UHGV virus genome: UHGV-0195737
DNA length: 58,116 nt
DNA from: a virus
Strand: one strand, 5' to 3'
In this document: in pieces, positions 13,829 to 58,116 of the stretch
Numbering within the stretch: position 1 is the stretch's first letter
Layout of the letters: each line of letters opens with the position of its first letter
The notes under the pieces: model-generated
Seen by the model: only the letters and a program-made list of their open reading frames with translations
Database searches by the model: none
Told to the model about the DNA's origin: nothing
Made by a program: the position numbers and the translations under genes

Positions 13829-14077
13829 ATGGCGCGGCGTAATCACGGAGACTATGTATACACGTTGAAACAAGCCGCCCGCCTTATCGGTTATCATGAG
13901 CACGAATTTATTGATTTGCTGATTGAGCGCGGGATTTTGTACCAGGTCTGTTTAACGCTGTACCCGAAAGCGAAATATTTGCAGGAAAAGTTATTCATCA
14001 TCATGACGGATGAAAACCAGGTTAATCATTCATTCGTCACTGACAAGGGCGTTAATTATCTGCGTGATAACCTGTAG
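13829..14077 (+). CDS. Putative small DNA-binding protein (excisionase/HTH_17-like)
   Basis: 82 aa; YTLKQAARLIGYHEHEFIDLLIERGIL resembles Xis/AlpA-type HTH. Confidence 0.4.
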   Translation: MARRNHGDYVYTLKQAARLIGYHEHEFIDLLIERGILYQVCLTLYPKAKYLQEKLFIIMTDENQVNHSFVTDKGVNYLRDNL

Positions 14078-14085
14078 GACCGCAT

Positions 14086-14289
14086 ATGTTAAAGTACGAC
14101 GGGCAAGAAACAGTCAGGTTTACTGGTTTTACTAAGGGGAACAATAAGGAGCTAACAGAATATTTTAGCTTAGATATTGGCGATGTTTACCGAGTAGAAA
14201 AATACTTACCCTCAATTAATTCTTTCATAATCATTAACAAAGAAAATCAAGGGGTGCTTGTTACATTCAACGAAGTGGAGTTGCCTTAA
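14086..14289 (+). CDS. Hypothetical protein (moron cassette b)
   Basis: 67-aa ORF in operon-like spacing. Confidence 0.4.
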   Translation: MLKYDGQETVRFTGFTKGNNKELTEYFSLDIGDVYRVEKYLPSINSFIIINKENQGVLVTFNEVELP

Positions 14290-14370
14290 ATGAATAGAGT
14301 GGACGAAGTAATTGAAAATGTTCTGGTAGTGGCTGGCGCAATCGCCATTGTTTATGCCTTTCTGAATTAA
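14290..14370 (+). CDS. Putative hydrophobic microprotein (26 aa)
   Basis: ATG overlaps upstream stop (TAAATG); single predicted TM helix. Confidence 0.25.
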   Translation: MNRVDEVIENVLVVAGAIAIVYAFLN

Positions 14371-14381
14371 CGGAGTGAATC

Positions 14382-14519
14382 ATGAAAATCGAAGTTTTAG
14401 CACTAATAGCAATGGGATTGATAGTATTTGGCGTACACGCTGCGGATTTGGACTGGTGCGCAATAGCTGAGAATATGGCACACGCTCACCCAATGGGATT
14501 GATGCACATGAACTTCTAA
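14382..14519 (+). CDS. Putative secreted peptide (45 aa)
   Basis: SD GGAG; N-terminal signal peptide ending VHA-AD; His-rich C-terminus. Confidence 0.35.
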   Translation: MKIEVLALIAMGLIVFGVHAADLDWCAIAENMAHAHPMGLMHMNF

Positions 14520-14528
14520 CACGAAAAA

Positions 14529-14557
14529 CCCCGCTCCGGCGGGGTGTTATTTTATTT
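14529..14557 (+). terminator. Rho-independent terminator of cassette b
   Basis: CCCCGC-TCCG-GCGGGG stem-loop followed by TGTTATTTTATTT. Confidence 0.6.
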
Positions 14558-14639
14558 GTCGTTCCGGCTATCGATTTCGTAAAAAATAGCCATACCTACC
14601 GCGATAATGAATACCATTACTAAACCATCAATCAGCATA

Positions 14640-14825
14640 TTAAACGCCCTCAATCAGAAATAAATACTCCTTCCCTTCGTATGATCTGCATCCCACATAC
14701 CCGTCGCCGTAGTCATGCAGATACCAGGTGTCGCCCTTGTCACTCACTACCGTGAGGTTATCGATCTGATAGTCTTCGAATAGCGTAAATGATTCATCGC
14801 CCGTCTTAACGCACATCCCGTACAT
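14640..14825 (-). CDS. Hypothetical small protein
   Basis: 61-aa ORF immediately downstream of M. Confidence 0.35.
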   Translation of the reverse strand: MYGMCVKTGDESFTLFEDYQIDNLTVVSDKGDTWYLHDYGDGYVGCRSYEGKEYLFLIEGV

Positions 14826-29345: not shown

Positions 29346-30108
29346 TCAATATTTATTGATGATATATACGCAAGCAACAAAACTTGCACAGTATGTAAAC
29401 ACTTCCAACCAGTCGAATAATTCTTTCATTGTTTACCCTTAAATCTCTGTTTTACTTCTTTGTGAATGAGCGCACCAATCATTACAATCACGTATGCGCA
29501 TAACATTATCGCGACAATAAGCAGACCAGAACAAAGCAAGAACATAAGCAGATCAAGAAACTCGAACATGATATTCCCCTACTGGCTATTTAATATCGTT
29601 AATTCTTGGAAGCGCATAAAATGCGCGTCCGGGCTAAATGGCGAAAGCCAGGGCGATAATGACAATAGCTAAAACCATGCACCAAAAATCTGATTCTTTC
29701 ATTCTTTAAGCTCCCGGTAAACATCCACAGCAATAACCACAACGACTGCCACCAGTAATAACATTTCATATGCGTTCATGCTTTCACCTATACGACGTTT
29801 TTCCACCAGAAATACAGGACACAGGCAAAGGCCACACACGCTATAATTTCGTGAAGCTCCATTGCGTCACCATAATCTATAAATATTCACGCCAATACCC
29901 ACGATAAGCACCAACAACCAGATGAGATCGTAGGCGTTCATAATTTACCTCGTTATAACATCGAACAATGCAAGGCCAACAAACAACAAAACTATCAGTA
30001 ACAGGAAGTCGCCCATAATTACCTCTGCATAGACATGACTACCAGAAACAGGCAAAGAATAAATCCAGCCGCCATACCGCCAATGAATGTTAATATCGAT
30101 GCAACCAT
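29346..30108 (-). other. Tandem array of 8 small hydrophobic ORFs (22-47 aa)
   Basis: Starts near 30108, 30016, 29941, 29862, 29779, 29702, 29569, 29429; each one predicted TM helix; several ATGA overlaps or AGAGGTAA-nn-ATG junctions; two begin MNAY. Confidence 0.35.
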
Positions 30109-30941: not shown

Positions 30942-31424
30942 TTATTCTTTGCGTAAGCACTGCGTATTAATGTAGTCCTGCAATCCGGTGATCTTCGCGT
31001 CTTTCTCTTTTAGCTGCTCTCTGAGGGATAGATAAGCCGATTCAGCGTCGGGAGTGAGTCTACAGGCGGTTCCATCAATGGTGCTGGCGGTGGCGGTGGC
31101 GTCGGACACTCGCACGGGTATTGCGTTGACGTGCAACCGGATAGCACCGCTATTAATACCGCTACGCAGATCGGCAATGTCAGACCTGATAGCTTTAATT
31201 TCATCGTGATACCTCTTATCAAGTTTTGACAGTTCGGCGTTTCGCTCCTTCATTTGCTGTATGGTGTTACTTGCGGTTTTTAAAGCGCCTTGCGTTGTCG
31301 TTAGTTCAGTCTGTAACGTGTTTACAGTTGACTGGTAGTGACAAAGCGCGGCGGTGAGTCCGGCAACAATGCAAACAACCACGGCGATGATTAACGCCTT
31401 TATCTTGTCCACGTTTCCCCCCAT
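30942..31424 (-). CDS. Rz: Rz-like i-spanin
   Basis: N-terminal TM helix then coiled coil; directly after endolysin. Confidence 0.65.
31010..31204 (-). CDS. Rz1: Rz1-like o-spanin (embedded, +1 frame)
   Basis: Embedded in Rz; lipobox LSGC; proline-rich mature region. Confidence 0.55.
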   Translation of the reverse strand: MKLKLSGLTLPICVAVLIAVLSGCTSTQYPCECPTPPPPPAPLMEPPVDSLPTLNRLIYPSESS

Positions 31425-31891
31425 TCGCAGACGGCATATTCAACATCACGGCGGTTAATTAAACCTTGCCATTTCTGACCACCAGCATATATCCAGCGTT
31501 TAAGCTGGGCGCACGCCTCTGATTTCTTGCCGTCATTGAGTAGTTTTAGTAAGGTTGATGTTTTGAAGTTGGTAGCGCCTACGTTATAGGCGAATGAGTA
31601 AAGCGCGGCGCGGGTAAAGTCGGAGATCTCGACCTTGATATATGGGTCAATAGCTTTCGCCACTTTGTGAAGATCTTTATTGAGTAATGCCTCGCATTCC
31701 GCAGGGGTGTAAGCCTTACCCAACATAATGTCTTTTCCGGTGTGACCATAACAAACGGTCCAGACACCGATAACATCACGATAGGGATCGTACTCCACGC
31801 CCTCCAGCGGTTTAATCATCACGGCAGCAATTGCTATTGCCCCACCCGCCGCTGCCGCCAGAATCTGGCGCTTTAGCGTTTTGCTGATCAT
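31400..31891 (-). CDS. SAR endolysin (T4-lysozyme-like, GH24)
   Basis: N-terminal Ala/Gly-rich SAR helix; lysozyme-type EG...D...T...GHT signature. Confidence 0.8.
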
Positions 31892-40916: not shown

Positions 40917-41150
40917 TTAAAAATAATCCTGTTCCGTCCCCCAGCGGTTGTTTAAATACCCCACCAACCACACAAACCGCTCAATACTGATTAGCGGGGC
41001 GACCTTGCGATAATGCCTATCGAGTATCAGCCGCGTGGCTTTATCGCTATAGCCGTTTCTTTCTACCTCCGCTTTGCAGGCAGAAAGCGCCGCGCGGGCA
41101 GCAGTTTTAACGGCGTTAAATTGCGGCTCTGACAGGTTGAATAAAGCCAT
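40917..41150 (-). CDS. Hypothetical protein
   Basis: Start set at internal ATG with SD GGTGA. Confidence 0.35.
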   Translation of the reverse strand: MALFNLSEPQFNAVKTAARAALSACKAEVERNGYSDKATRLILDRHYRKVAPLISIERFVWLVGYLNNRWGTEQDYF

Positions 41151-41154
41151 ATAA

Positions 41155-41391
41155 TCACCACGGATCATCCCAATCAGGTGCGGCAGCCCAACAAAAACCC
41201 ATGAAAACACTAAAAGCGATTAGCACGCGTACACCAAAAAACAATTCCGCCCACGGTCGAATATCAGGAAGCGACCATGTGATAAACATTGCACCGACAA
41301 TCAAAACAGCAATAATGACAGTGCACCCCAGGAAAACAAAAAGCGCGGCTAAAAGCCACGCCCCCAAGAAATGAAACAGTTCTCTTAACAT
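41155..41391 (-). CDS. Small membrane protein (2 TM)
   Basis: 78 aa, two hydrophobic helices. Confidence 0.4.
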   Translation of the reverse strand: MLRELFHFLGAWLLAALFVFLGCTVIIAVLIVGAMFITWSLPDIRPWAELFFGVRVLIAFSVFMGFCWAAAPDWDDPW

Positions 41392-41595
41392 TTAAACGTC
41401 CTCAATCACCCCGCCTTTCACGCGCTCTTTAATATCCCACACATGAGGCATACACATTTCCTGATAATAGTGATCCGGCCTGCTGCCGAAATACCATTTG
41501 CCATCCATGTAAAAATAAACGCCCGAAAAATTACCAGGTGCGGCCTTTGTTGCTGCTTCTGGAATTTTCCATTCTCTGTAATGTTTAAACCGCAT
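41392..41595 (-). CDS. Hypothetical small protein
   Basis: 67-aa ORF. Confidence 0.4.
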   Translation of the reverse strand: MRFKHYREWKIPEAATKAAPGNFSGVYFYMDGKWYFGSRPDHYYQEMCMPHVWDIKERVKGGVIEDV

Positions 41596-41779
41596 GTAAC
41601 GATACCTCCCGGATAAGTTTGCTCAATTCAACATCTGGTAGCCTGCGAAAATGCTGTACACCATCGACAAAGCGCACGCAATAAACATCGCCTATATTGT
41701 TGTAGTAATAACAGCCACTAAAACCAATCCCGGCTAATTTGGCGTTGTCCGGTAATGTATAGCCACCAACCTTTTTCAT
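41585..41779 (-). CDS. Hypothetical small protein
   Basis: ATG start (track start is GTG). Confidence 0.4.
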   Translation of the reverse strand: MKKVGGYTLPDNAKLAGIGFSGCYYYNNIGDVYCVRFVDGVQHFRRLPDVELSKLIREVSLHAV

Positions 41780-41797
41780 ATTCAGCCTCACAAATAT

Positions 41798-41965
41798 TTT
41801 TCAATCACCCAGCGGAGAAACAAACCGACCATTACGATCCCCCAGCAACAAGCCATAAACATCAATTCAGCGTCCATTGTGTTTTCCTTCTTCCCAGGCG
41901 AAATAACAAACAAAGCCAACCAGGGCGAACAACCAACAACCCAGGATTAAATCAATCAGCCACAT
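41798..41965 (-). other. Two coupled hydrophobic microprotein ORFs (about 29 and 32 aa)
   Basis: MWLIDLILGCWLFALVGFVCYFAW with SD GGAGG; overlapping start of MDAELMFMACCWGIVMVGLFLRW. Confidence 0.3.
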
Positions 41966-41967
41966 AA

Positions 41968-42186
41968 TCACGCCTCCAGTAAGCCATAATCGAATTTTCC
42001 AAGATATTGCTCGATACCAATCATCTCGACACCCTGGACTTCCGCGCCCCATACAGTTACGTGATAAGCGTCCTCCCGCCATTGTTCGTGGCTTAACACT
42101 TCGTTTGCCGGATATTTCCGCCCGGCGACGTAAGCGCCCGGACCTACGCCACCCTCTACGCAATGCAGCATGATTTGGTTTTCCAT
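41968..42186 (-). CDS. Hypothetical protein
   Basis: ATG with SD GGGGTGGA; the overlapping Arg-rich track ORF 41867-42163 is judged spurious. Confidence 0.4.
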   Translation of the reverse strand: MENQIMLHCVEGGVGPGAYVAGRKYPANEVLSHEQWREDAYHVTVWGAEVQGVEMIGIEQYLGKFDYGLLEA

Positions 42187-42196
42187 ATCCACCCCG

Positions 42197-42379
42197 CTAA
42201 TAGCAAACCGCGTACATACAGATCCCGTTGTTGAAGGCTTTGATAATCAGGTCAATGATCATGTAAACGAGCATTACAGCCGCCGCCGGGACCAGAATCG
42301 CGAATAGTCCGCCTAACGTGCGCTCAATGATGAAGTGCGGGTTTAGTTTGCTTTTGTGGTTACGTTCAAAGTTTGTCAT
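42197..42379 (-). CDS. Small membrane protein
   Basis: About 60 aa from internal ATG; one TM helix. Confidence 0.35.
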   Translation of the reverse strand: MTNFERNHKSKLNPHFIIERTLGGLFAILVPAAAVMLVYMIIDLIIKAFNNGICMYAVCY

Positions 42380-42416
42380 TTTCCCGCCCTCCGTTCTGTA
42401 TACCTTTCGATTTAAG

Positions 42417-42475
42417 TTTACAAAACGGATACAGCAGGACAAGACAAAATGTATATTTATGTGATCGCAATCACG
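42417..42475. promoter_or_regulatory. Intergenic element B (homologue of element A)
   Basis: TACAAAACGGATAC...TGTGATCGCAATCACG; near-CRP palindrome. Confidence 0.4.
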
Positions 42476-42478
42476 CTG

Positions 42479-43099
42479 TTAATGAAGTACGCGTTTTTCC
42501 GGCTCATGAATAGGCTGTGCGTTTTTCCGTGCATCATTAAGCACAGCGATAGCCGCCTGTACGCCTAATTCATTAGCTCGCATATCATCGCCAACGAAAT
42601 TTCCGTAAAGCACCGGAATAAACGCCTTAACGTTCACTTCTTCGTGTCCTTCCTCAACAAATTTCTGTAACATCTTAACCTCAAAGATGCCTTTCATCAG
42701 TTCGCGCATACAATGCAGTGAAGCACTACCGAACTGATCCTTACTTAACGGGAAAATAACAGCACTTCCGAACGCGAGCGGATCAACTTCCTCCGGTACT
42801 GGTACGCGTCCGAATTCTTCCTCCATGCGTTTTACAAAAGAAAGGCAGAACACATAACGCGCAATATCTGTTTTTTCTTCCAGGCTTAAATCAACGTAAT
42901 CGCGGATTGATGCATCCATCATAATATCAACAATCTGTAGCGCCAGGTTTAAATCGGCGTCATACGCGCCAGCGTTCATATCTTTTAATACTTCGTGATA
43001 ATCCTTCGTTTCCACTTCATGAAAACTTGCGTCCTCCGCGTAGCGAGTGATTAACATGCCGTCGCTGCCGAGTGAATAAGCTGTTTTGATATTGTTCAT
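42479..43099 (-). CDS. Hypothetical protein (early operon)
   Basis: 206 aa from ATG with SD AAGGA. Confidence 0.45.
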   Translation of the reverse strand: MNNIKTAYSLGSDGMLITRYAEDASFHEVETKDYHEVLKDMNAGAYDADLNLALQIVDIMMDASIRDYVDLSLEEKTDIARYVFCLSFVKRMEEEFGRVPVPEEVDPLAFGSAVIFPLSKDQFGSASLHCMRELMKGIFEVKMLQKFVEEGHEEVNVKAFIPVLYGNFVGDDMRANELGVQAAIAVLNDARKNAQPIHEPEKRVLH

Positions 43100-43110
43100 A
43101 ATATTTATCC

Positions 43111-43443
43111 TTATAGTGGATGATGCCATTTCATTTCAGTTTCTGGATTGAACGGGTTTCCTTCGCTTGAAAGGAATAAATCACGCTCCCGTTTCAGTTC
43201 TTCCGGGCTTATTTCCATTTCGTCAATCTGACCGAACGATCCCGGCATCATTCGTTTTAAATCAGATAGCGGACGCATAAGGCCACAGCCACGTAACAGC
43301 ATATCTACCGCAAATTGTCGCCGCCCGCCAGCATCATTGAAGCGACGCGCCCACGGCACACACACGATCCGGCGTTCGAATTCAATGAATAGAGATAGCT
43401 TGTTTGTGTTAGCGTCATACGCTTTGTGGAATTTAATTTTCAT
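43111..43443 (-). CDS. Hypothetical protein
   Basis: 110-aa ORF. Confidence 0.4.
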   Translation of the reverse strand: MKIKFHKAYDANTNKLSLFIEFERRIVCVPWARRFNDAGGRRQFAVDMLLRGCGLMRPLSDLKRMMPGSFGQIDEMEISPEELKRERDLFLSSEGNPFNPETEMKWHHPL

Positions 43444-43626
43444 TTATAACACCTCGACATATTGTTCAAGATGCCATTGGCCTACCTCGTCGTAATCTTC
43501 ATCGAATATTGTTACCTGACCCCCTGGCCCGAAATAAAAGGCAGTAGCAATAAATTCATATCCCCACCACGCGCGGATCTTCTCACCGCCTTTCAGGTCT
43601 TTAACCTTCACCAATTTTATAGCCAT
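43444..43626 (-). CDS. Hypothetical small protein
   Basis: 60-aa ORF. Confidence 0.35.
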   Translation of the reverse strand: MAIKLVKVKDLKGGEKIRAWWGYEFIATAFYFGPGGQVTIFDEDYDEVGQWHLEQYVEVL

Positions 43627-43889
43627 ACGCCGAACATCCCATTTAGACCAGCGAACAACCGCCGCCAGTGGTTTTCAACATAAGCCCGGAACGGCTTAAC
43701 ACGAACATTGCGGGCCGTTAGTACGATACTATCGAAGTAGCGCGGCTCGATCAGCGTGCCATCTAAATATTGAACAAGTAACGGTCGTTCAAGATCGCTA
43801 CATGTTTTATTCAGCACGACCAGGCCAGGATCACTACGATATGCAGGCAAAACAACGAGATCACCCGCCTTTGCATCCCAAATCATCAT
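43617..43889 (-). CDS. Hypothetical protein
   Basis: First ATG (track start is GTG). Confidence 0.4.
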   Translation of the reverse strand: MMIWDAKAGDLVVLPAYRSDPGLVVLNKTCSDLERPLLVQYLDGTLIEPRYFDSIVLTARNVRVKPFRAYVENHWRRLFAGLNGMFGVWL

Positions 43890-44130
43890 CACATTAACCC
43901 CTTACCAATAAAGCTAATCACCGCCGCCAGTGCGCCGCAAAACACAACCGTAAACAGGAAGCAAATAACGCAAAACGCAACCCTTACAATATCCTTACCG
44001 ACTTTCATAATTGGCCTCACATATTAGTAATCAGTTTGATGATCGCCACCGTGATATAAAGCGAAACACTGAGATACAGCACCGCCACTGCTACCGCCGC
44101 GAGCAATGCGGCAATTTTTGCGAGATTCAT
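43889..44130 (-). other. Two coupled hydrophobic microprotein ORFs (about 37 and 39 aa)
   Basis: MNLAKIAALLAAVAVAVLYLSVSLYITVAIIKLITNM and MKVGKDIVRVAFCVICFLFTVVFCGALAAVISFIGKGLM; ATGA overlap with upstream gene. Confidence 0.3.
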
Positions 44131-44393
44131 TTGCCACCCTCCGCAATGAATTTATCAAGCCATTTATTATTCGCCAGACGTTCGGCGTCTTCGCCAAATG
44201 ATTTACGGTTACTTAATTCCTGGCGAGTAGGGAAAGGCCATTTATCCACCCACCCCGCAGACGTTTCGAATTCATAGTTACCGCCGCCGAAATCAATAAA
44301 GACGTCACTATCATCAAGACTTTCCGCAGTCCTCTGAAAACCTCTGCCGTTATTTTCGCTTAATGTTGTAGCTGTCATGATTCGATACCTCAT
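44127..44393 (-). CDS. Hypothetical protein
   Basis: 88-aa ORF. Confidence 0.4.
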   Translation of the reverse strand: MRYRIMTATTLSENNGRGFQRTAESLDDSDVFIDFGGGNYEFETSAGWVDKWPFPTRQELSNRKSFGEDAERLANNKWLDKFIAEGGK

Positions 44394-44671
44394 TAATCGT
44401 TAATAACCTGGCCCATACGCCCGCGATATTTGCGCATACGTGGATCGACATATTCAGGCCACTGCATATCCGGTTTTCTTTGCAGCGGGTAAAAACTCGC
44501 TTGCCAGTTGTCAAACCAGATTTGCTTTGCGTACAGGTCACTAAATCTTTTCGCCATTCGTTCCGCTGCCGTGCCACATAAAAAAAGCCCCCGATCGATT
44601 TGATCGCGGGCTTCTTTTAATACTTGCTCTTTTGTTCGTGGCGGCGGTGGCGGTTTTAAATAATCACCCAT
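44393..44671 (-). CDS. Hypothetical protein
   Basis: 92-aa ORF; Pro-rich N-terminus. Confidence 0.4.
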   Translation of the reverse strand: MGDYLKPPPPPRTKEQVLKEARDQIDRGLFLCGTAAERMAKRFSDLYAKQIWFDNWQASFYPLQRKPDMQWPEYVDPRMRKYRGRMGQVIND

Positions 44672-44687
44672 CGCTAACCTATTGATT

Positions 44688-45107
44688 CTAAAAAGGAATA
44701 TCGTCGTCGAAGTCCATCGGCGGAGGATTGTTCCCGTTATTATTCTGCTGCTGCGGCGGCGCTTTCTGCTGCTGGCCTTGCTGCTGGCCCTGCTGGTTAA
44801 CGTTCATGAATTCGAATTCACTGACCGCTACTTCTACAGCCGTTCCCTTCGTGCCGTCGTTCCGGTCATATTGCCGAACATCCAGGCGACCGCTTACCAC
44901 TATCTTTCCGCCCTTGCGGATATGCGGCGCTAATTTTTCCGCACGCTCACCAAATACCAGGCAAGTGATCCACATTGTCCGCTTATTATCGCCGTAGCCA
45001 TTCGTTACAGCTAACGAGAAACTACCAATCGCTTTTCCGTTTTGCGTGTAGCGAATTTCCATGTCGTTTCCGATATTTCCGCCCAGCGTGATTGAATTTA
45101 AACTCAT
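44688..45107 (-). CDS. ssb: Single-stranded DNA-binding protein
   Basis: OB-fold-sized N-terminus, Gln/Gly-rich linker, canonical acidic tail DFDDDIPF. Confidence 0.85.
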   Translation of the reverse strand: MSLNSITLGGNIGNDMEIRYTQNGKAIGSFSLAVTNGYGDNKRTMWITCLVFGERAEKLAPHIRKGGKIVVSGRLDVRQYDRNDGTKGTAVEVAVSEFEFMNVNQQGQQQGQQQKAPPQQQNNNGNNPPPMDFDDDIPF

Positions 45108-45748
45108 TAATTAATCTCCCCGTTAAGCTCTTTTAAGCGAATGTCATAAACGTCTTTCGCTTTTTGTTGTTGTTCTGAATCTTTAGGCAGTAGCTTCCAG
45201 CACTTGCCGAAGATCTCGCGCAATTTGTTCGCGTCCGGCGCTTTCGCTGCCGCATCACAGAAACGTGCTAACACTTCATCAGGATTTGGTGGCGCTTTCT
45301 GCTGCTGCGGTTGTTGTTTTGGCGGGTTTTTCTGCTGGCGTGGCTGTTGATTTGTCTGTTTAGCATAAGCATCAGTATCAGCGTCTTTCGCGTCGTCTAT
45401 GCAGAATAAACCGTTCAAGGCATATTTCCGCGCGTAACTTGATGTTGCTCCTGTTAGCTGGCTTGCATCCATACCGCGCTTGTTTTCTTCCTCCCTTGCG
45501 TAAGCAGTTACCGCTATTGCGTCCTCGCCGTCGCTTAATGTCGCAGTGGCTTTAACGTAATAACGCTCACCAATCAGGATAATTTCATCATTCAGCGTTA
45601 GTGTGACATTTTGAAGTAGCGGTTTAACCGCTTCCAGAATATCCTCCGCTGAACGATAGCTATAACCCCCGAAGTTATTACGCTGATTCTTAGGCGCGTT
45701 AAGCGTCTGCTGAATCGTCCACAGTTTCTTGTGTAGCTCTGTTTTCAC
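45107..45748 (-). CDS. erf: Erf-family single-strand annealing protein
   Basis: GGYSYRSAEDI-type ERF signature; Gln/Pro-rich linker; GTG start with SD AAGGAG. Confidence 0.65.
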   Translation of the reverse strand: MKTELHKKLWTIQQTLNAPKNQRNNFGGYSYRSAEDILEAVKPLLQNVTLTLNDEIILIGERYYVKATATLSDGEDAIAVTAYAREEENKRGMDASQLTGATSSYARKYALNGLFCIDDAKDADTDAYAKQTNQQPRQQKNPPKQQPQQQKAPPNPDEVLARFCDAAAKAPDANKLREIFGKCWKLLPKDSEQQQKAKDVYDIRLKELNGEIN

Positions 45749-45858
45749 CCTTTAATCTCCTTCGCTGTTAATACCACATACAAGGCTTTATTCGCGGCGC
45801 TCCACATTTCGGCATCGTGAAGCATTTCCGCTACCGCCAGTTTGAATTGAAGCGCCTG
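45736..45858 (-). CDS. Hypothetical small protein (40 aa)
   Basis: Strong SD AGGAGGTGA; not in track. Confidence 0.35.
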
Positions 45859-45897
45859 GATAACCATAATGTCACCTCCTGTTGTTTACGTTATGTA

Positions 45898-46188
45898 TTA
45901 ATGGTATCGGACTTTATCGAGGGGTTTTTCCCCAAGCTGGCGCGGCTGCGTTGCGTGAAAGTAGTTGCCGCTTTCATTTTCCTGATACCATTTTGTTGCT
46001 CCCTTGCGACGTCCTTTAACGCTATTTGGTTCGCATTTTTCCTCATTTGCAAAGCGAATAGCTTTTTCCACTCTATCAACCTTCTGTATGTGCGGGCCTT
46101 CATCTTGCTCTGCTGCCCGTTTCATCCGTCGGCGGGCGCGGGCGTTAAGTTTGCTCTCACAGTTACCGTAAGTAATTTTCGCATTCAT
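45898..46188 (-). CDS. N: N-like transcription antiterminator
   Basis: Arg-rich motif ARARRRMKRAAEQ near N-terminus; resembles P22 gp24 as recalled; nut-like site upstream. Confidence 0.5.
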   Translation of the reverse strand: MNAKITYGNCESKLNARARRRMKRAAEQDEGPHIQKVDRVEKAIRFANEEKCEPNSVKGRRKGATKWYQENESGNYFHATQPRQLGEKPLDKVRYH

Positions 46189-46252: not shown

Positions 46253-46417
46253 ATTTTCAAACTTCCTTTTTTCTACTGCCTTCCCTCCTTTGACTCGCAA
46301 TATACGCCCCGTGATATGTTGAGTCAATCCATTTTGTATACTTTTTTAAAATATTTTCTATCTCATTGATATTCAAACAATAAAAACTGTTTTCGGTTTA
46401 CGTTTTGGTGCTTTCCG

Positions 46418-46450: not shown

Positions 46451-47098
46451 TTATGGCAGGTTTACGATCTTTGCATCCACCACCACGCCAATAATTTTTG
46501 ATTCAGGGTTTAGCGGGATTGGTGGGTACAGCGGATTAAGCGAACGTAAAAGCCTTTGACCTCCATCAATGATTAACTGTTTAAACGTCGGCGTTTGCCC
46601 TTCCTCCAGTTGGGCTATAACCAGTTTGCCGTCAATAGCTGGCGCGTGCGGATCGACAAGTATCATCGTCCCTGCCGGGATACTTAATCCCTGCGGTGCG
46701 TTCATTGACTCACCTTTTGCGACCAGCCAATAACTATCATCCGAACAAATCACGCTCGTGTTAACGTGTGGTAGTAATGCGCGTTTTGCTTCTTCCATGT
46801 AGTTTCCTGCGTCTTTCCAGTCAATAACCGGATAACGTCCCACGTCGAGCGGCGGCGCTCCCGGCAACGTATTTGAAACTGAATCATCGATAACCATCCC
46901 GTCATGAGTGACCGTAAACTGCCGACGACCAAGCGCCCGCATAATCCGCGCAATATCTTCAAGATTTGGCTCGCGGCGACCATTCAGCCAGTGAGATAAG
47001 CCGCCTTTTGTGATCCCCATGAGATCCGCCAATGAATCCTGGCTCATGCCTTGCGCCCGCATGAGTTGTTTTGCTAAGTCATACCATTTTGTTTTCAT
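46451..47098 (-). CDS. CI-like repressor (HTH plus LexA-type S24 peptidase domain)
   Basis: N-terminal HTH (QDSLADLMGITKGGLSHWLNG); C-terminal AKGESM serine motif and downstream Lys. Confidence 0.75.
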   Translation of the reverse strand: MKTKWYDLAKQLMRAQGMSQDSLADLMGITKGGLSHWLNGRREPNLEDIARIMRALGRRQFTVTHDGMVIDDSVSNTLPGAPPLDVGRYPVIDWKDAGNYMEEAKRALLPHVNTSVICSDDSYWLVAKGESMNAPQGLSIPAGTMILVDPHAPAIDGKLVIAQLEEGQTPTFKQLIIDGGQRLLRSLNPLYPPIPLNPESKIIGVVVDAKIVNLP

Positions 47099-47405: not shown

Positions 47406-47660
47406 ATGAGTATGCACATGATGAATGAGGCTTGGAAAGTGGAACTTAACAGCCCGATTCAAAAACTTGTCTTAATGGCTCTGGCTGAAAAGGCAGATAA
47501 TCGCCGCCACGCCAGGGTATCACACCAAGAAATCGCAAAAATGTGTGAAATTCCTGTAAGTACGGTGATACTTGCTATCAACGGATTAACACACAAAGGA
47601 TTTATTTGTAACCCTTACCCGGTAAATGACGTTTACCTGGTAATGCTGCCGGAGGAATAG
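47406..47660 (+). CDS. Winged-helix regulatory protein (Cro/CII position)
   Basis: 84 aa; HTH-like segment SHQEIAKMCEIPVSTVILAINGL; first gene of rightward operon. Confidence 0.45.
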   Translation: MSMHMMNEAWKVELNSPIQKLVLMALAEKADNRRHARVSHQEIAKMCEIPVSTVILAINGLTHKGFICNPYPVNDVYLVMLPEE

Positions 47661-47662
47661 AA

Positions 47663-48775
47663 ATGAAGTGGTTTAAGCATGATAGCGATGCGAACCGCGA
47701 TGAAAAACTTCAAAACGTTTTGCTTGATTATGGCCTGGAAGGATACGGGCTTTATTGGTATTGCATCGAGTTAATAGCCTACGAAGTAGATCAACATAAT
47801 CTGACATTCGAACTAAAACACGATGCAAGAATCATTGCCCGGAACGTAGGATCAAGTCCGAAACGTGTAGAAGAAATGATGAGATACTTCATCGAAGTTG
47901 GCTTGTTCGACTGCTCACATGGCGTTGTAAGATGCCTGTCGTTAGCAAAAAGACTTGATCAATCAATGGCTTCGTCAAAAAGCGAATTTAGAGAGGCAAT
48001 TAAAAGGCTAAACGTCAAAAAAAATAAAAAGTTAGATAATCCTTTAGTGGAAGTAAATAATTCACCAGATACAGAAAAAGAAAAACCATGGCACAACCAT
48101 GATGCAGCCATGGCACAACCATGGCACAACCATGGATTAGAAGTAGAAGTAGAAGAAGAAATAGAAACAGAAGAAGAAAAGAAAAATATAAAAAGAAAAG
48201 AAGTCAATCAGGACGGTGACTTTCAGATAAGCGAATCTGCATTGCGTTGCCTGGCTTTCTACAACGAAAAGGCAGGATGCAAATGTCGTGATACTAAGCC
48301 ATTCATCGAACTACTGACAGAAACAAAAACACGTAAGGCATACACGGAGGATGAGATCACATTAGTAATTGAGTGGGCTTTGACGCAATGGCGTAGCCGT
48401 GGTGGAGTGCCTAAGCCTGTTAACATTTGCCGGGTAACTAAGTTTGATGGGTATCTGGCTGATGCTGAACAATGGCGCAAGCTGTCAGCTACTGTAAACG
48501 CTGCCGACGTGGTGGAAGCATTTAACAGCACGTTTGACGGCCTGTTACCACCTGCCGAACTGGATCGGGATATTGAACGTAAGATCCATTCGCTATCTGA
48601 CTACCTGAAAGACAAAAGCGTTGACAGCTTTATTGCTTACTTCCAGAAATTTAAAGCTGATGCGCCGAACTTCTATTTCGGTGAGAATGAAAGCGGCTGG
48701 CTGGCTGATATAGATTTTCTGTTGAAGCCGGAAACGCTCCGCAAGACGCGTAACTTCCAACATATACCATCATGA
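47663..48775 (+). CDS. Replication initiation protein (replisome organiser-like)
   Basis: 370 aa; N-terminal phage replisome-organiser-like region; iterons plus AT-rich tract inside the gene; upstream of DnaB. Confidence 0.6.
   Translation: MKWFKHDSDANRDEKLQNVLLDYGLEGYGLYWYCIELIAYEVDQHNLTFELKHDARIIARNVGSSPKRVEEMMRYFIEVGLFDCSHGVVRCLSLAKRLDQSMASSKSEFREAIKRLNVKKNKKLDNPLVEVNNSPDTEKEKPWHNHDAAMAQPWHNHGLEVEVEEEIETEEEKKNIKRKEVNQDGDFQISESALRCLAFYNEKAGCKCRDTKPFIELLTETKTRKAYTEDEITLVIEWALTQWRSRGGVPKPVNICRVTKFDGYLADAEQWRKLSATVNAADVVEAFNSTFDGLLPPAELDRDIERKIHSLSDYLKDKSVDSFIAYFQKFKADAPNFYFGENESGWLADIDFLLKPETLRKTRNFQHIPS
48086..48200. repeat. Putative origin: iterons plus AT/purine-rich tract
   Basis: CCATGGCACAA x3 plus degenerate copy, then GAAGTAGAAG...AAAAATATAAAAAG. 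Confidence 0.45.
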
Positions 48776-48899: not shown

Positions 48900-49001
48900 A
48901 TGGACGGTAAACACGTTTTCGCCCTGGCTTTTGCCATCGCTGCGGCAATCGCTGTTAACGTCGCCTTGTTCGGCGGTTTGTTCCTTCTAGTCAATCCATA
49001 A
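48900..49001 (+). CDS. Putative hydrophobic microprotein (33 aa)
   Basis: MDGKHVFALAFAIAAAIAVNVALFGGLFLLVNP; SD GAGAGG. Confidence 0.3.
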   Translation: MDGKHVFALAFAIAAAIAVNVALFGGLFLLVNP

Positions 49002-56217: not shown

Positions 56218-56329
56218 CTTTTCGTTAAACGGATATTAACAGCAATGTACGTAAGAAGACACACTACGGCTAAAAAATAATCTAAGCTGTTGTTTTTGAT
56301 AGGGATTAGTGAACAGGGATGAACGCGAA

Positions 56330-56503
56330 TGAACGCGAATAAACAAGGCGAGATCCTTTTTGGCGAAGTGGTATCAGCAGCGGCAGACGCACGGGTATTT
56401 GTCGAAGGCCGCTGGCAGTTTGATGATGATAAGCTCAATACGTTGCATCATTTAGGTGCTGGCACGTTTGTTACCAGTGGTAAGCGAGTTACCGCGGGCT
56501 AAA
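56330..56503 (+). CDS. Hypothetical small protein (flank)
   Basis: 57-aa ORF MNANKQGEILFGEVV...; outside prophage. Confidence 0.25.
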
Positions 56504-56567
56504 GAATCATATGCAGCAACCAAGTTGTTTAAGCAATGTTTCCATATGAGTTAAAGCATATTTTATC

Positions 56568-57034
56568 TCACGATTGCATATTTTTAGTGAAGATTAATTT
56601 ATCCTCACCAACATCATAGTAATTGCGTATTATCGCCTCATTGATAAAGCCCTGTTTTGTATAAAATGCGCGGGCGGCACTAAAATCGATATGGCTGGCG
56701 GTCTCTACTAATAGTAGTCTTGCCTGTTTAATTGTGAGCTCTTTTCTATTTCGTTAATCAGCAGATGTCTCACTCCCTGGCGCTGATGGGAAGGACTGAT
56801 CCAGAGCATTAATAAATTTCAGACATCATTTGTCATCATTTCAGAAGCACAGTAGGCAATCCCTGCCAGTCCCAAGTGTTCTGCACTAAACCATAAATCG
56901 GCAGATTGACCTGAGAAATAATGTGTTAGTGTTTTTTGTACATGATGAAGGCCATCTTGATCAAATTGATCCCTGTCAAGCAGCATATCCATTAATGGTT
57001 CAACATCTGAAGGTTTGACTGGTCGTATAAACAT
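56568..57034 (-). pseudogene. GNAT-family acetyltransferase, frameshifted
   Basis: N-terminal fragment (track ORF 56819-57034) and C-terminal fragment with ARAFYTKQGF motif in a different frame. Confidence 0.45.
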
Positions 57035-57111
57035 GGAACTCCTTATTTATTGATGAATATTTGAAAATTGTTTGCATGGAACGCGGTTAATCTGAATTTT
57101 CAGCGGAAGTT

Positions 57112-57255
57112 TCACTCAAAGGCTTTATTAATCCGCTCCTTATGTCCTTTTACAGCAAATAAATAATTACCTCCCTGTTTTTGTATCTTCTCTGCAATAT
57201 CTTTCTGGCAACCCATCGCATCAGTTGTGATAATTTCACCTTTAATATCCAACAT
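57112..57255 (-). pseudogene. ISAs1-family (H-repeat-associated) transposase remnant
   Basis: 48-aa fragment [27 protein letters not shown] matches conserved ISAs1 transposase core. Confidence 0.5.
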
Positions 57256-57493
57256 GTTAGTATCAATTATTGAACATAAAATGTAAATTATTTAGTGCAA
57301 AAAATCGGCGCACCGTGTTCTTTCCCATATTCCTAATATGGCAACTTTAAGTTATCGCCGTCTATACTTATAGAAATTTCATCAGGGGTGACGTAAATAG
57401 AATTTTTTTCATCCTCAATTGCCCATAACTGATTAATAAAAAAGTGTTTTTTCATCTAATAACAAATTATTACATGTAGTAAAATTATTAATA

Positions 57494-57961
57494 TCAAAAA
57501 AAATCATCAGCACAATTAATTTTTAAATTTAAAAAATAAAGAAAAATATTATTGATTGATTTGAGTGTAAACCACTTGTCATTAACAAATTTATAGCCAG
57601 ATGGTTTTATAAAATAATAATTATCTCCTGGTATAAAGGCATACATATCATTTAAGGTTATACTCAACAAAAAACTACGACCTGGTTTAATAGTATTCCA
57701 CCGTTCAGGATTCGTATTAATTTCAAAAGGACATGAACCACCTAAGTAGTCCAACGTGATATTCCCAGAGTTGATTCTGAATGGTTTTTTGCATATCGCA
57801 TCATATTCATCTCCTTTTCCATCTTTTACTTTCATAGGTAGATAATATTTAGAAAAAAAATACGTGGTAGAGCTATTGTTAGTAAAGGTTATGTTAGCAA
57901 AAATCCTGTTATTTTTTTTACTCATAGCTAATTGAGCATTGACATCCGCTATATAATTCAT
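57494..57961 (-). CDS. Hypothetical protein in AT-rich flank
   Basis: 155-aa ORF, very AT-rich, Asn/Lys/Phe-rich. Confidence 0.35.
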   Translation of the reverse strand: MNYIADVNAQLAMSKKNNRIFANITFTNNSSTTYFFSKYYLPMKVKDGKGDEYDAICKKPFRINSGNITLDYLGGSCPFEINTNPERWNTIKPGRSFLLSITLNDMYAFIPGDNYYFIKPSGYKFVNDKWFTLKSINNIFLYFLNLKINCADDFF

Positions 57962-58116
57962 ATGATTGTATTTTTTCTTACACTCATCATAATTTTCGAT
58001 AGGATAAATTAATGGCCTTCCTTTGATATCTCTCTCAAGCCCAAACCCGTATTTTTTATTAAAACCATTTCATCCGCAGTCGATTGAAAGGAATAGAAAA
58101 ATATAATATTTACGAT

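Follow-up and report, generated by a model that had tools for sequence, protein, structure and literature searches.

Hydrophobic small open reading frames in the early operons

The virus genome UHGV-0195737, a stretch of 58,116 nucleotides (nt) called the window in the following, is a prophage within an E. coli chromosome (its right flank, positions 56300 to 58116, is 99.8% identical to the yddH region) and carries in its early operons five short open reading frames (ORFs), each of which encodes a hydrophobic peptide with a single predicted transmembrane (TM) helix. Four of them, A32, B29, C37 and D39, form two adjacent pairs inside the run of small genes of the minus-strand early operon, while the fifth, E33, lies in the divergent plus-strand operon. 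A first-pass annotation made from the sequence alone had pointed to two such pairs of 29 to 39 amino acids (aa), and all of these ORFs are present, though the first pair ends at position 41788 rather than 41798 and thus 10 nt away from where it had been placed.

The pair C37/D39 is inserted tightly between two genes of the same strand. C37 (44017–44130, minus strand; 37 aa, one TM helix, MNLAKIAALLAAVAVAVLYLSVSLYITVAIIKLITNM) shares an ATGA overlap with the 88-aa gene upstream of it (44127..44393, minus strand; phrog_28542, of unknown function) and has a GGAGG Shine-Dalgarno (SD) motif 7 nt upstream. D39 (43889–44008, minus strand; 39 aa, one TM helix, MKVGKDIVRVAFCVICFLFTVVFCGALAAVISFIGKGLM) follows after a gap of 8 nt with a GAGG that overlaps the C37 stop codon, and its own stop codon overlaps the start of the downstream 90/91-aa gene (GTGA/TGATG; 43617..43892, minus strand; phrog_28396). 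We place the start of D39 at the ATG at 44008 and not at the GTG at 44020, which is out of frame in type II relatives.

The pair A32/B29 is arranged in a similar way. Lineage-specific A32 (41867–41965, minus strand; 32 aa, one TM helix, MWLIDLILGCWLFALVGFVCYFAWEEGKHNGR) is separated by only 2 nt from the 74-aa gene upstream (41968..42192, minus strand; phrog_28996), with a GGAGG in front of it, and overlaps B29 (41788–41877, minus strand; 29 aa, MDAELMFMACCWGIVMVGLFLRWVIEKYL) by 11 nt (ATGGACGCTGA, 41867–41877). B29 combines an acidic N-terminus with one TM helix and a RW.IE tail, and is followed by an 8-nt gap with a GAGG before the 64-aa gene downstream (41585..41779, minus strand). Read from the sequence, all of these junctions are tight, which bears out the proposed linkage of the four ORFs to their neighbors by ATGA overlaps or SD sequences. 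E33 (48900–49001, plus strand; 33 aa, Ala-rich TM helix, MDGKHVFALAFAIAAAIAVNVALFGGLFLLVNP) does follow the initiator gene as the first-pass annotation had it, but it belongs to the other early operon, that of replication, and is not coupled to any gene: It begins 124 nt past the initiator stop codon with its own SD (GAGAGGA) and has ca. 125 to 130 nt of noncoding DNA on each side.

Conservation and purifying selection

We compared 36 IMG/VR loci around the 91-aa gene (of which L005 is identical to the window), 3 annotated records and 47 loci around the small-terminase gene. Conservation had been proposed as a check of the ORFs, and it turned out to be high: C37, D39 and B29 were each found in 38 of the 38 loci that cover their site, and E33 is intact in 29 of the 30 loci that cover its interval. 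Among these loci, C37 is frameshifted in an A5 run in a single one (L015) and B29 is truncated in another (L027). A32, together with the 60-aa ORF F60 described further below, is present in 4 of the ca. 40 loci fetched first, which represent the sub-lineage of the window, and A32 also occurs in 4 loci in which it is fused to B29. The ATG start codon, the SD and the length are kept across relatives (37 to 39 aa for C37, 38 to 40 aa for D39, 29 to 30 aa for B29 and 33 aa for E33) while the proteins themselves vary, with 17, 24, 13 and 16 distinct variants, respectively.

This variation bears a frame-specific signature of purifying selection. From substitutions counted on neighbor-joining trees with Fitch reconstruction of codons, we obtained an omega of 0.32 for C37 (p = 4e-15), 0.34 for D39 (p = 5e-11), 0.22 for B29 (p = 4e-12), 0.19 for E33 (p = 2e-12) and, with three unique sequences, 0.16 for A32 (p = 8e-4), next to 0.28 and 0.24 for the flanking 91-aa and 74-aa genes. 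Shifted sense frames of the five ORFs gave values of about 0.5 to 6. In pairwise pN/pS, the annotated frame is the lowest of all six, followed by the antisense frame that shares its wobble positions, just like in the flanking genes. Conservation of starts, SDs and ORFs together with a frame-specific excess of synonymous changes, the comparative hallmarks of protein-coding small ORFs, are found here side by side, and we are therefore confident that A32, B29, C37, D39 and E33 are very likely genuine protein-coding genes, as far as comparative sequence data can tell.

The junctions are conserved as well. The ATGA and GGAGG between the 88-aa gene and C37 are invariant in 23 unique sequences, and the coupling junctions are kept in every allele; most relatives lack A32, and their 74-aa gene couples directly to B29. 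At the level of whole cassettes, the loci L016 and L031 are 93% to 94% identical at the nt level in the flanking genes but only 58% in C37 and 64% in D39, and both cassette alleles still encode TM peptides of 35 to 39 aa. In type II alleles, C37 alone is replaced. Mosaicism at the gene borders around C37/D39 (in homologs of 43617–44393) is sharp. For E33, aa conservation is 76% to 100%, compared to 54% to 100% for the initiator upstream, and the genes downstream are variable.

Relatives of D39, searched for among 5.8 billion proteins with the 43-aa GTG-extended form as query, fall into 47 clusters that are all 37 to 40 aa long and all from E. coli or phages. In the phage collection, these relatives appeared exclusively in seven full-genome records of the mEpimmI group introduced below. 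A tblastn search with E33 against the same phage collection returned nothing, probably due to low-complexity masking.

A split and fused pair of helices

An exact-sequence look-up showed that the 90% identity cluster of B29 also holds members of 58 aa. Two of these proteins, P0053 (...AWEEGNTMDAE...) and P0054 (...AWKKGNTMDAE...), are A32 fused to B29. The P0054 loci (L089 to L092) come from four independent samples and are syntenic with the window. According to the alignment, the fusion in P0054 arose by a 1-nt deletion in a TGGG, while that in P0053 needs a different 1-nt deletion in an A-run, so that there are two independent in-frame fusions of A32 and B29. The A32 part of a fused allele differs from that of the window at four positions, and all four differences are synonymous. 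Both the split and the fused form are in circulation among E. coli prophages, and the natural fused homologs at the same locus are what is expected for a split two-helix membrane protein. Because the two ORFs have been fused elsewhere by two independent 1-nt deletions, A32 and B29 are probably both translated and may well act together as a two-helix unit. Adjacency of the two halves is not obligatory, as they are separated by an inserted gene in one locus (L006). The distribution of charges in A32 and B29 is ambiguous as to topology, with a linker of the fusions that is either acidic (WEEGNT) or basic (WKKGNT).

Predicted membrane-helix character

By scale-based hydropathy, each peptide has one TM-length segment, which agrees with their earlier description as single-helix hydrophobic ORFs, and this holds for all homologs, as expected for single-pass small membrane proteins. 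KD17 values, likewise a scale-based prediction, are 2.1 to 3.3 in every variant, and the uncharged cores span 17 to 29 residues, with that of E33 being split by N20. TM character is kept even in alleles of only 47% to 54% aa identity. Within the predicted helices, small and polar residues are conserved: D39 carries a nearly invariant G25-A-x-A-A29 motif, N20 and G25-G26 are invariant in E33, and Y19, S23 and Y25 are invariant in C37. P33 of E33 and K5 of C37 are invariant as well. Variability follows a helical periodicity in B29 (p = 0.009) and, at the margin, in C37 (p = 0.056). From their sequences, the peptides are thus likely to be inserted into a membrane.

RNA-level elements and antisense frames

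A hairpin in codons 7 to 12 of C37 (44096..44112) is annotated as TERM_2 in the GenBank record of phage mEp021. In the window, its sense strand has no U-tail while the antisense strand has an A2T5 tail, and a U-tail is found only in some other alleles. Among alleles, co-variation is seen at the wobble positions of its Ala codons (C:G, A:T, G:C), which is easily explained by the Ala codons themselves. We considered RNA structure as the main cause of the observed conservation and rejected it, as the U-tail of the C37 hairpin is present in some alleles only and a hairpin of E33 is not conserved.

Opposite C37, a promoter-like site (43983–44011; 9/12) and the hairpin followed by T5 (44096–44112) could in combination specify an antisense RNA of ca. 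100 nt that would cover the ORF. This suggestion is weakly supported: The region has 9 promoter-like matches compared to 13.6 in shuffled sequences, and the -10 element of the site reads CATAAT in less than half of the alleles and CATGAT in most others. On the sense strand, no promoter-like site was found near the two minus-strand pairs. Antisense coding was rejected as an explanation given the higher omega of the antisense frames, their orientation against the operon and the fact that the sole ORF with a start codon is a TTG ORF antisense to E33.

These observations bear on the possibility that the ORFs are chance occurrences or purely RNA-level elements that are never translated. Hydrophobic ORFs arise easily in T-rich frames, and the ones described here match no known family and were called neither by PGAP nor in the original annotation of mEp021. 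However, an untranslated sequence accounts poorly for conserved starts, SDs and lengths, for a frame-specific deficit of nonsynonymous changes, for fusions of A32 and B29 that are in frame in independent lineages and for hairpins that are not conserved across alleles. Furthermore, strictly TM-like ATG ORFs of 25 to 45 aa are enriched in the window, with 11 of them compared to 1.5 ± 1.3 in Markov-1 simulations. We therefore regard this explanation as exceedingly improbable.

Alternatively, the ORFs might be translated as mere relays, with the passage of ribosomes keeping downstream genes translated or blocking Rho or terminators and the peptide itself being irrelevant. The tight and conserved junctions (ATGA, TGATG and spacers of 2 to 8 nt) would fit this idea, as would the dependence of the operon on antitermination (PMC11893012) and the terminator-like hairpin inside C37 of some alleles. 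Yet relays predict an omega near 1 instead of the observed 0.16 to 0.34, which equals that of the flanking genes, and TM hydrophobicity would not need to be kept at 47% to 54% aa identity. E33 is coupled to no gene at all, and most relatives pass from the 74-aa gene straight to B29 without A32, so that no relay is needed there. A role as translation relays only is thus very improbable.

Phage group and operon context

Seven full-genome phage records, a partial fragment of mEp021 and 35 E. coli genomes contain sequence that matches the segment from 41100 to 45800, with 82% to 87% nt identity over 75% to 97% of its length; these 35 are among 5,426 complete E. coli genomes (ca. 0.6%). With an nt similarity of ca. 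84% and the same annotated gene order, the window belongs to the mEpimmI group of mEp021/mEp010-like phages, which Negrete-Mendez et al. (2025) described as Nus-dependent, non-lambdoid temperate siphophages (PMC11893012). These phages encode a cI-like repressor and an N-like antiterminator, Gp17, and the antitermination by Gp17 of mEp021 is the basis of the operon logic that we assume here (PMC11893012).

In the window, the repressor gene (46451–47098, minus strand) lies upstream of the operon with the two ORF pairs and in the same orientation, with a strong hairpin and U-run terminator directly at its 3' side (46445–46428). The best sigma-70-like promoter of the region (46299–46327, minus strand; TTGACT-17-TATATT) is located upstream of the N-like gene (45898–46188, minus strand) and is the likely early promoter of this operon. 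The N-like gene is the first of the operon and is followed by a non-hydrophobic 40-aa ORF (45745–45867, minus strand), which weakly matches Pfam Lambda_Kil (PF06301) at 21.1 bits and E = 2e-4 below the cut-off of 27.6 and is probably the "Kil-like" core gene of the group (PMC11893012). Next come Erf, SSB, an Abc2-like gene and finally the tightly packed run of small genes. The divergent plus-strand operon begins at 47406 with a Cro-like helix-turn-helix protein and continues with the initiator (47663–48775), E33, a Rha-like gene and a DnaB-type helicase. The lysis cassette with endolysin and Rz-like genes (30942–31891) is ca. 10 kb away from the two ORF pairs.

This arrangement is informative about the timing of expression. 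Exclusion is often brought about by small membrane proteins of phages, e.g., T4 Imm, HK97 gp15 and P22 SieA, and with this precedent the peptides could be factors of lysogenic conversion or superinfection exclusion that are produced in the lysogen, comparable to the exclusion proteins that other temperate phages place in the inner membrane. The repressor gene upstream in the same orientation makes read-through into the small genes conceivable, but the terminator directly behind it is strong, no sense-strand promoter-like site lies near the ORFs, and genes behind an early promoter and an N-like antiterminator should be off in lysogens. In addition, experiments in the mEpimmI group have attributed exclusion to Lpp lipoproteins (PMC11893012), and C37, D39, B29 and E33 do not vary as morons do but come close to being core genes. 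Taken together, we consider such a role in the lysogen to be quite unlikely.

The 91-aa protein encoded downstream of D39 bears the PGAP name "toxin-antitoxin system toxin subunit", yet Pfam, NCBIfam and PDB returned no match for it and the AlphaFold2 model is poor (pLDDT 50). A search against one genome per species returned only an unrelated match in Bacilli. The toxin name thus looks unsupported.

Family searches and annotation status

None of the five peptides, their divergent alleles or the fusion matches a family in Pfam, PHROG, NCBIfam or PADLOC, known type I toxins and holins included (with toxin families of Pfam, NCBIfam and PADLOC considered up to E<=0.01–0.1). Likewise, none of the five matches the lambda Kil family (PF06301), and Rfam has no family in the window at either the gathering or the E<=1 threshold.

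Even so, the ORFs are under-annotated rather than undiscovered, since several public records already list them as "hypothetical protein". This is the case for homologs in GenBank records based on PHANOTATE (mEp010_29, _30, _37 and _14) and for exact window peptides in nr (DAI96667, DAI96668 and DAI96676; TPA "hypothetical protein [Caudoviricetes sp.]"), and 451 public contigs carry the exact C37 sequence. In the mEp021 reference record and in PGAP/RefSeq, the corresponding stretches are left empty (gaps at 1177–1364 and 3286–3522 of L003). PMC11893012 is the only paper on the group and does not discuss the ORFs, which its supplements do not mention either; mass spectrometry of mEp021 covered virion proteins only (PMC11893012).

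Possible modes of action

We somewhat favor the view that these ORFs encode early single-pass inner-membrane microproteins that act by helix–helix contacts. Ribosomes would reach A32, B29, C37 and D39 by termination–reinitiation or SD-led initiation at the conserved tight junctions, whereas E33 would be read as a stand-alone SD-led gene of the divergent replication operon. Because both operons should be repressed in the lysogen, judging from the operon position and the literature on mEp021, expression of the peptides is expected early after induction or infection but not in the lysogen, where the terminator behind the repressor gene should stop read-through into the small genes. They would then insert into the inner membrane and engage in helix–helix contacts as small modulators of host or phage membrane proteins; insertion and contacts are suggested by the invariant residues of D39, E33 and C37 and the periodic variability of B29 and C37. 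A32 would form a working two-helix unit with B29, and C37 probably a pair with D39. Instead of being lysogenic-conversion morons, the peptides would serve early functions that are conserved in the mEpimmI group.

Enterobacteriaceae harbor many hydrophobic intergenic small ORFs (smORFs) under purifying selection (PMC11188072), and larger membrane proteins are the usual binding partners through which small membrane proteins act (PMC12648545), both of which are in line with this view. That the peptides are partner-binding modulators rather than plain membrane toxins is plausible but can only be proposed tentatively. We have more doubts about a bolder version in which C37/D39 and A32/B29 are two-peptide inner-membrane effectors that, together with E33, bind and switch off host inner-membrane machines and are needed for efficient lytic development. 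Unlikely as it is, this effector set would, if real, constitute a new family of phage "microprotein inhibitors", of which C37 might additionally be tuned by antisense RNA or its intragenic hairpin.

Several points weigh against the favored view. The neutral expectation behind our omega values ignores transition/transversion and codon bias, with the shifted frames being the only control, and the estimate for A32 comes from the three unique sequences mentioned above. Stop codons are absent from the antisense frames of D39 and E33 too, and openness alone is for this reason weak evidence for these two ORFs. The hairpin in C37, an annotated terminator, could add constraint at the RNA level. For D39 and E33, the helical periodicity of variability does not reach significance, and the Pfam, PHROG, NCBIfam and PADLOC searches returned no homolog with a known function.

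We rank a toxin-like, depolarizing role as the main rival. The peptides might oligomerize in the manner of type I toxins or holins and depolarize or permeabilize the inner membrane in early lytic growth, with possible roles in host shut-off, the exclusion of other phages or abortive outcomes and with C37 perhaps being controlled by an antisense RNA. Their size and composition fit type I toxins, which have fewer than 60 aa and one TM helix (PMC12648545), and the invariant mid-helix Asn of E33 and the GAxAA motif of D39 are compatible with oligomerization. The promoter-like site and the hairpin with T-run opposite C37 as well as the PGAP name of the neighboring 91-aa protein point in the same direction. 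However, there is no Pfam match to families of the Hok/Ldr/Ibs/TisB type or to holins and no Rfam antitoxin small RNA (sRNA) at the gathering or E<=1 threshold, promoter-like matches in the region are not above those in shuffled sequences, the antisense -10 element is not conserved, and the toxin name of the neighbor has no support from hidden Markov models or PDB. Type I toxins are stand-alone units that are expressed without induction, whereas A32, B29, C37 and D39 have no promoter of their own and are coupled in a repressed polycistronic operon. Holins would be expected to match a holin family and to lie next to endolysin or spanin genes, neither of which applies to any of the five ORFs, with the lysis cassette located ca. 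10 kb from the two pairs. Considering both sides, we find a role as membrane-damaging toxins rather unlikely.

Comparison to known systems

The homologs in mEpimmI phages (mEp010, mEp013/044/515/554, MagusPhagus and TPA records) occupy the same syntenic sites with the same lengths and junctions at 45% to 100% aa identity, and we see no difference in kind from the ORFs of the window. Beyond this group, the peptides resemble small membrane proteins of fewer than 50 aa encoded on the E. coli chromosome (AcrZ, MgtS, MgrB, CydX and YohP; PMC12648545) in size, in the single TM helix and in the SD-led start, and they share purifying selection and the omission by standard annotation with enterobacterial smORF families (PMC11188072). 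Partner binding as the likely mode of action may be another commonality with the chromosomal proteins. Unlike those proteins and smORFs, to which they have no homology, they are encoded by a phage, in an early operon that is repressed, and are coupled and arranged in adjacent pairs.

Type I membrane toxins such as Hok/Gef, Ldr, Ibs, TisB, ShoB and ZorO, with prophage-borne cases in B. subtilis and C. difficile (PMC12648545), are similarly hydrophobic, carry one TM helix in 19 to 60 aa and are sometimes found on prophages. In contrast to these, the five ORFs lack a dedicated promoter, a long 5' untranslated region, a recognizable antisense sRNA and a family match, and the coupled ones are part of a polycistronic lytic operon.

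The early-left operons of lambdoid and P22-like phages carry small accessory genes, e.g., kil, cIII and the ea genes, which like the ORFs described here are early and located behind an N-type antiterminator among genes for recombination and host takeover, but neither Kil nor cIII of lambda is a TM peptide. Phage proteins with a single TM helix that inhibit host membrane enzymes are known as well, as exemplified by phiX174 E and other single-gene lysis (Sgl) proteins, but our peptides have no homology to them and are not found in a lysis context. Finally, adjacent genes for proteins with one or few helices that are also found fused have been described for dual-topology families. A32 and B29 resemble such split and fused pairs in being overlapping genes here and a single two-helix ORF of 58 aa elsewhere, though they are much smaller.

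Small unannotated phage genes are well known, and by comparative criteria the ORFs appear real but belong to a well-documented class. Nothing is overturned by them, as abundant hydrophobic smORFs under purifying selection have been documented in Enterobacteriaceae (PMC11188072). What they would add is that each phage of this group of gut coliphages may encode more than a dozen conserved single-helix microproteins and that RefSeq annotation omits at least four such genes of the early operons. Since mEp021 and mEp010 grow on K-12, the ORFs could serve as a ready and defined set to study early phage membrane microproteins. The one detail beyond routine is the split and fused A32/B29 pair, which offers a natural handle on the interaction of two peptides.

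Other hydrophobic small ORFs of the genome

The first-pass annotation had counted more than a dozen candidate membrane microproteins, and this number holds with eight ORFs in an array at 29346–30108 and the five described above, to which two further ORFs can be added. F60 (42197..42379, minus strand; 60 aa, single TM helix) lies between the two pairs and had been missed; it is lineage-specific with an omega of 0.07 and is annotated by PGAP as a hypothetical protein. G78 (41155..41391, minus strand; 78 aa, hydrophobic) belongs to the same operon as the two pairs, was found in 38 loci with an omega of 0.59 and, as read by eye from its sequence, probably carries two TM segments. When the window was scanned for ATG ORFs with SD and TM segment outside of larger ORFs, the scan returned only the ORFs of the first-pass annotation, F60 and three ORFs at 14290–14638.

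In the vicinity of F60, a noncoding spacer of ca. 100 nt (42380–42478) follows a 216-aa gene and contains a near-palindrome (GTGATTGCGATCAC, 42461–42474) that is unchanged in 14 related loci and may be a regulatory site. The same spacer holds a doubtful, non-hydrophobic 33-aa ORF that was called by PHANOTATE in mEp010.

The eight hydrophobic ORFs of the array (a1 to a8, 22 to 47 aa, 29346..30108, minus strand) are lined up head to tail, with a 184-aa gene on one side and the small-terminase gene on the other. Conservation extends to related phages, in which the content of the array varies, and seven of the eight have an omega of 0.23 to 0.31, while a2 was left out of this test because it has too few relatives. 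A shared MNxY(D/E) start suggests that a3, a5 and the a4 of relatives are tandem paralogs, and a7 alone has a weak match to a holin PHROG (E = 0.0024). The three ORFs at 14290–14638 are SD-led TM micro-ORFs within a moron-like insert of the tail module (13829–14653) that has genes on both strands; they encode 26 aa (14290–14370, plus strand), 45 aa (14382–14519, plus strand) and 28 aa (14552–14638, minus strand).

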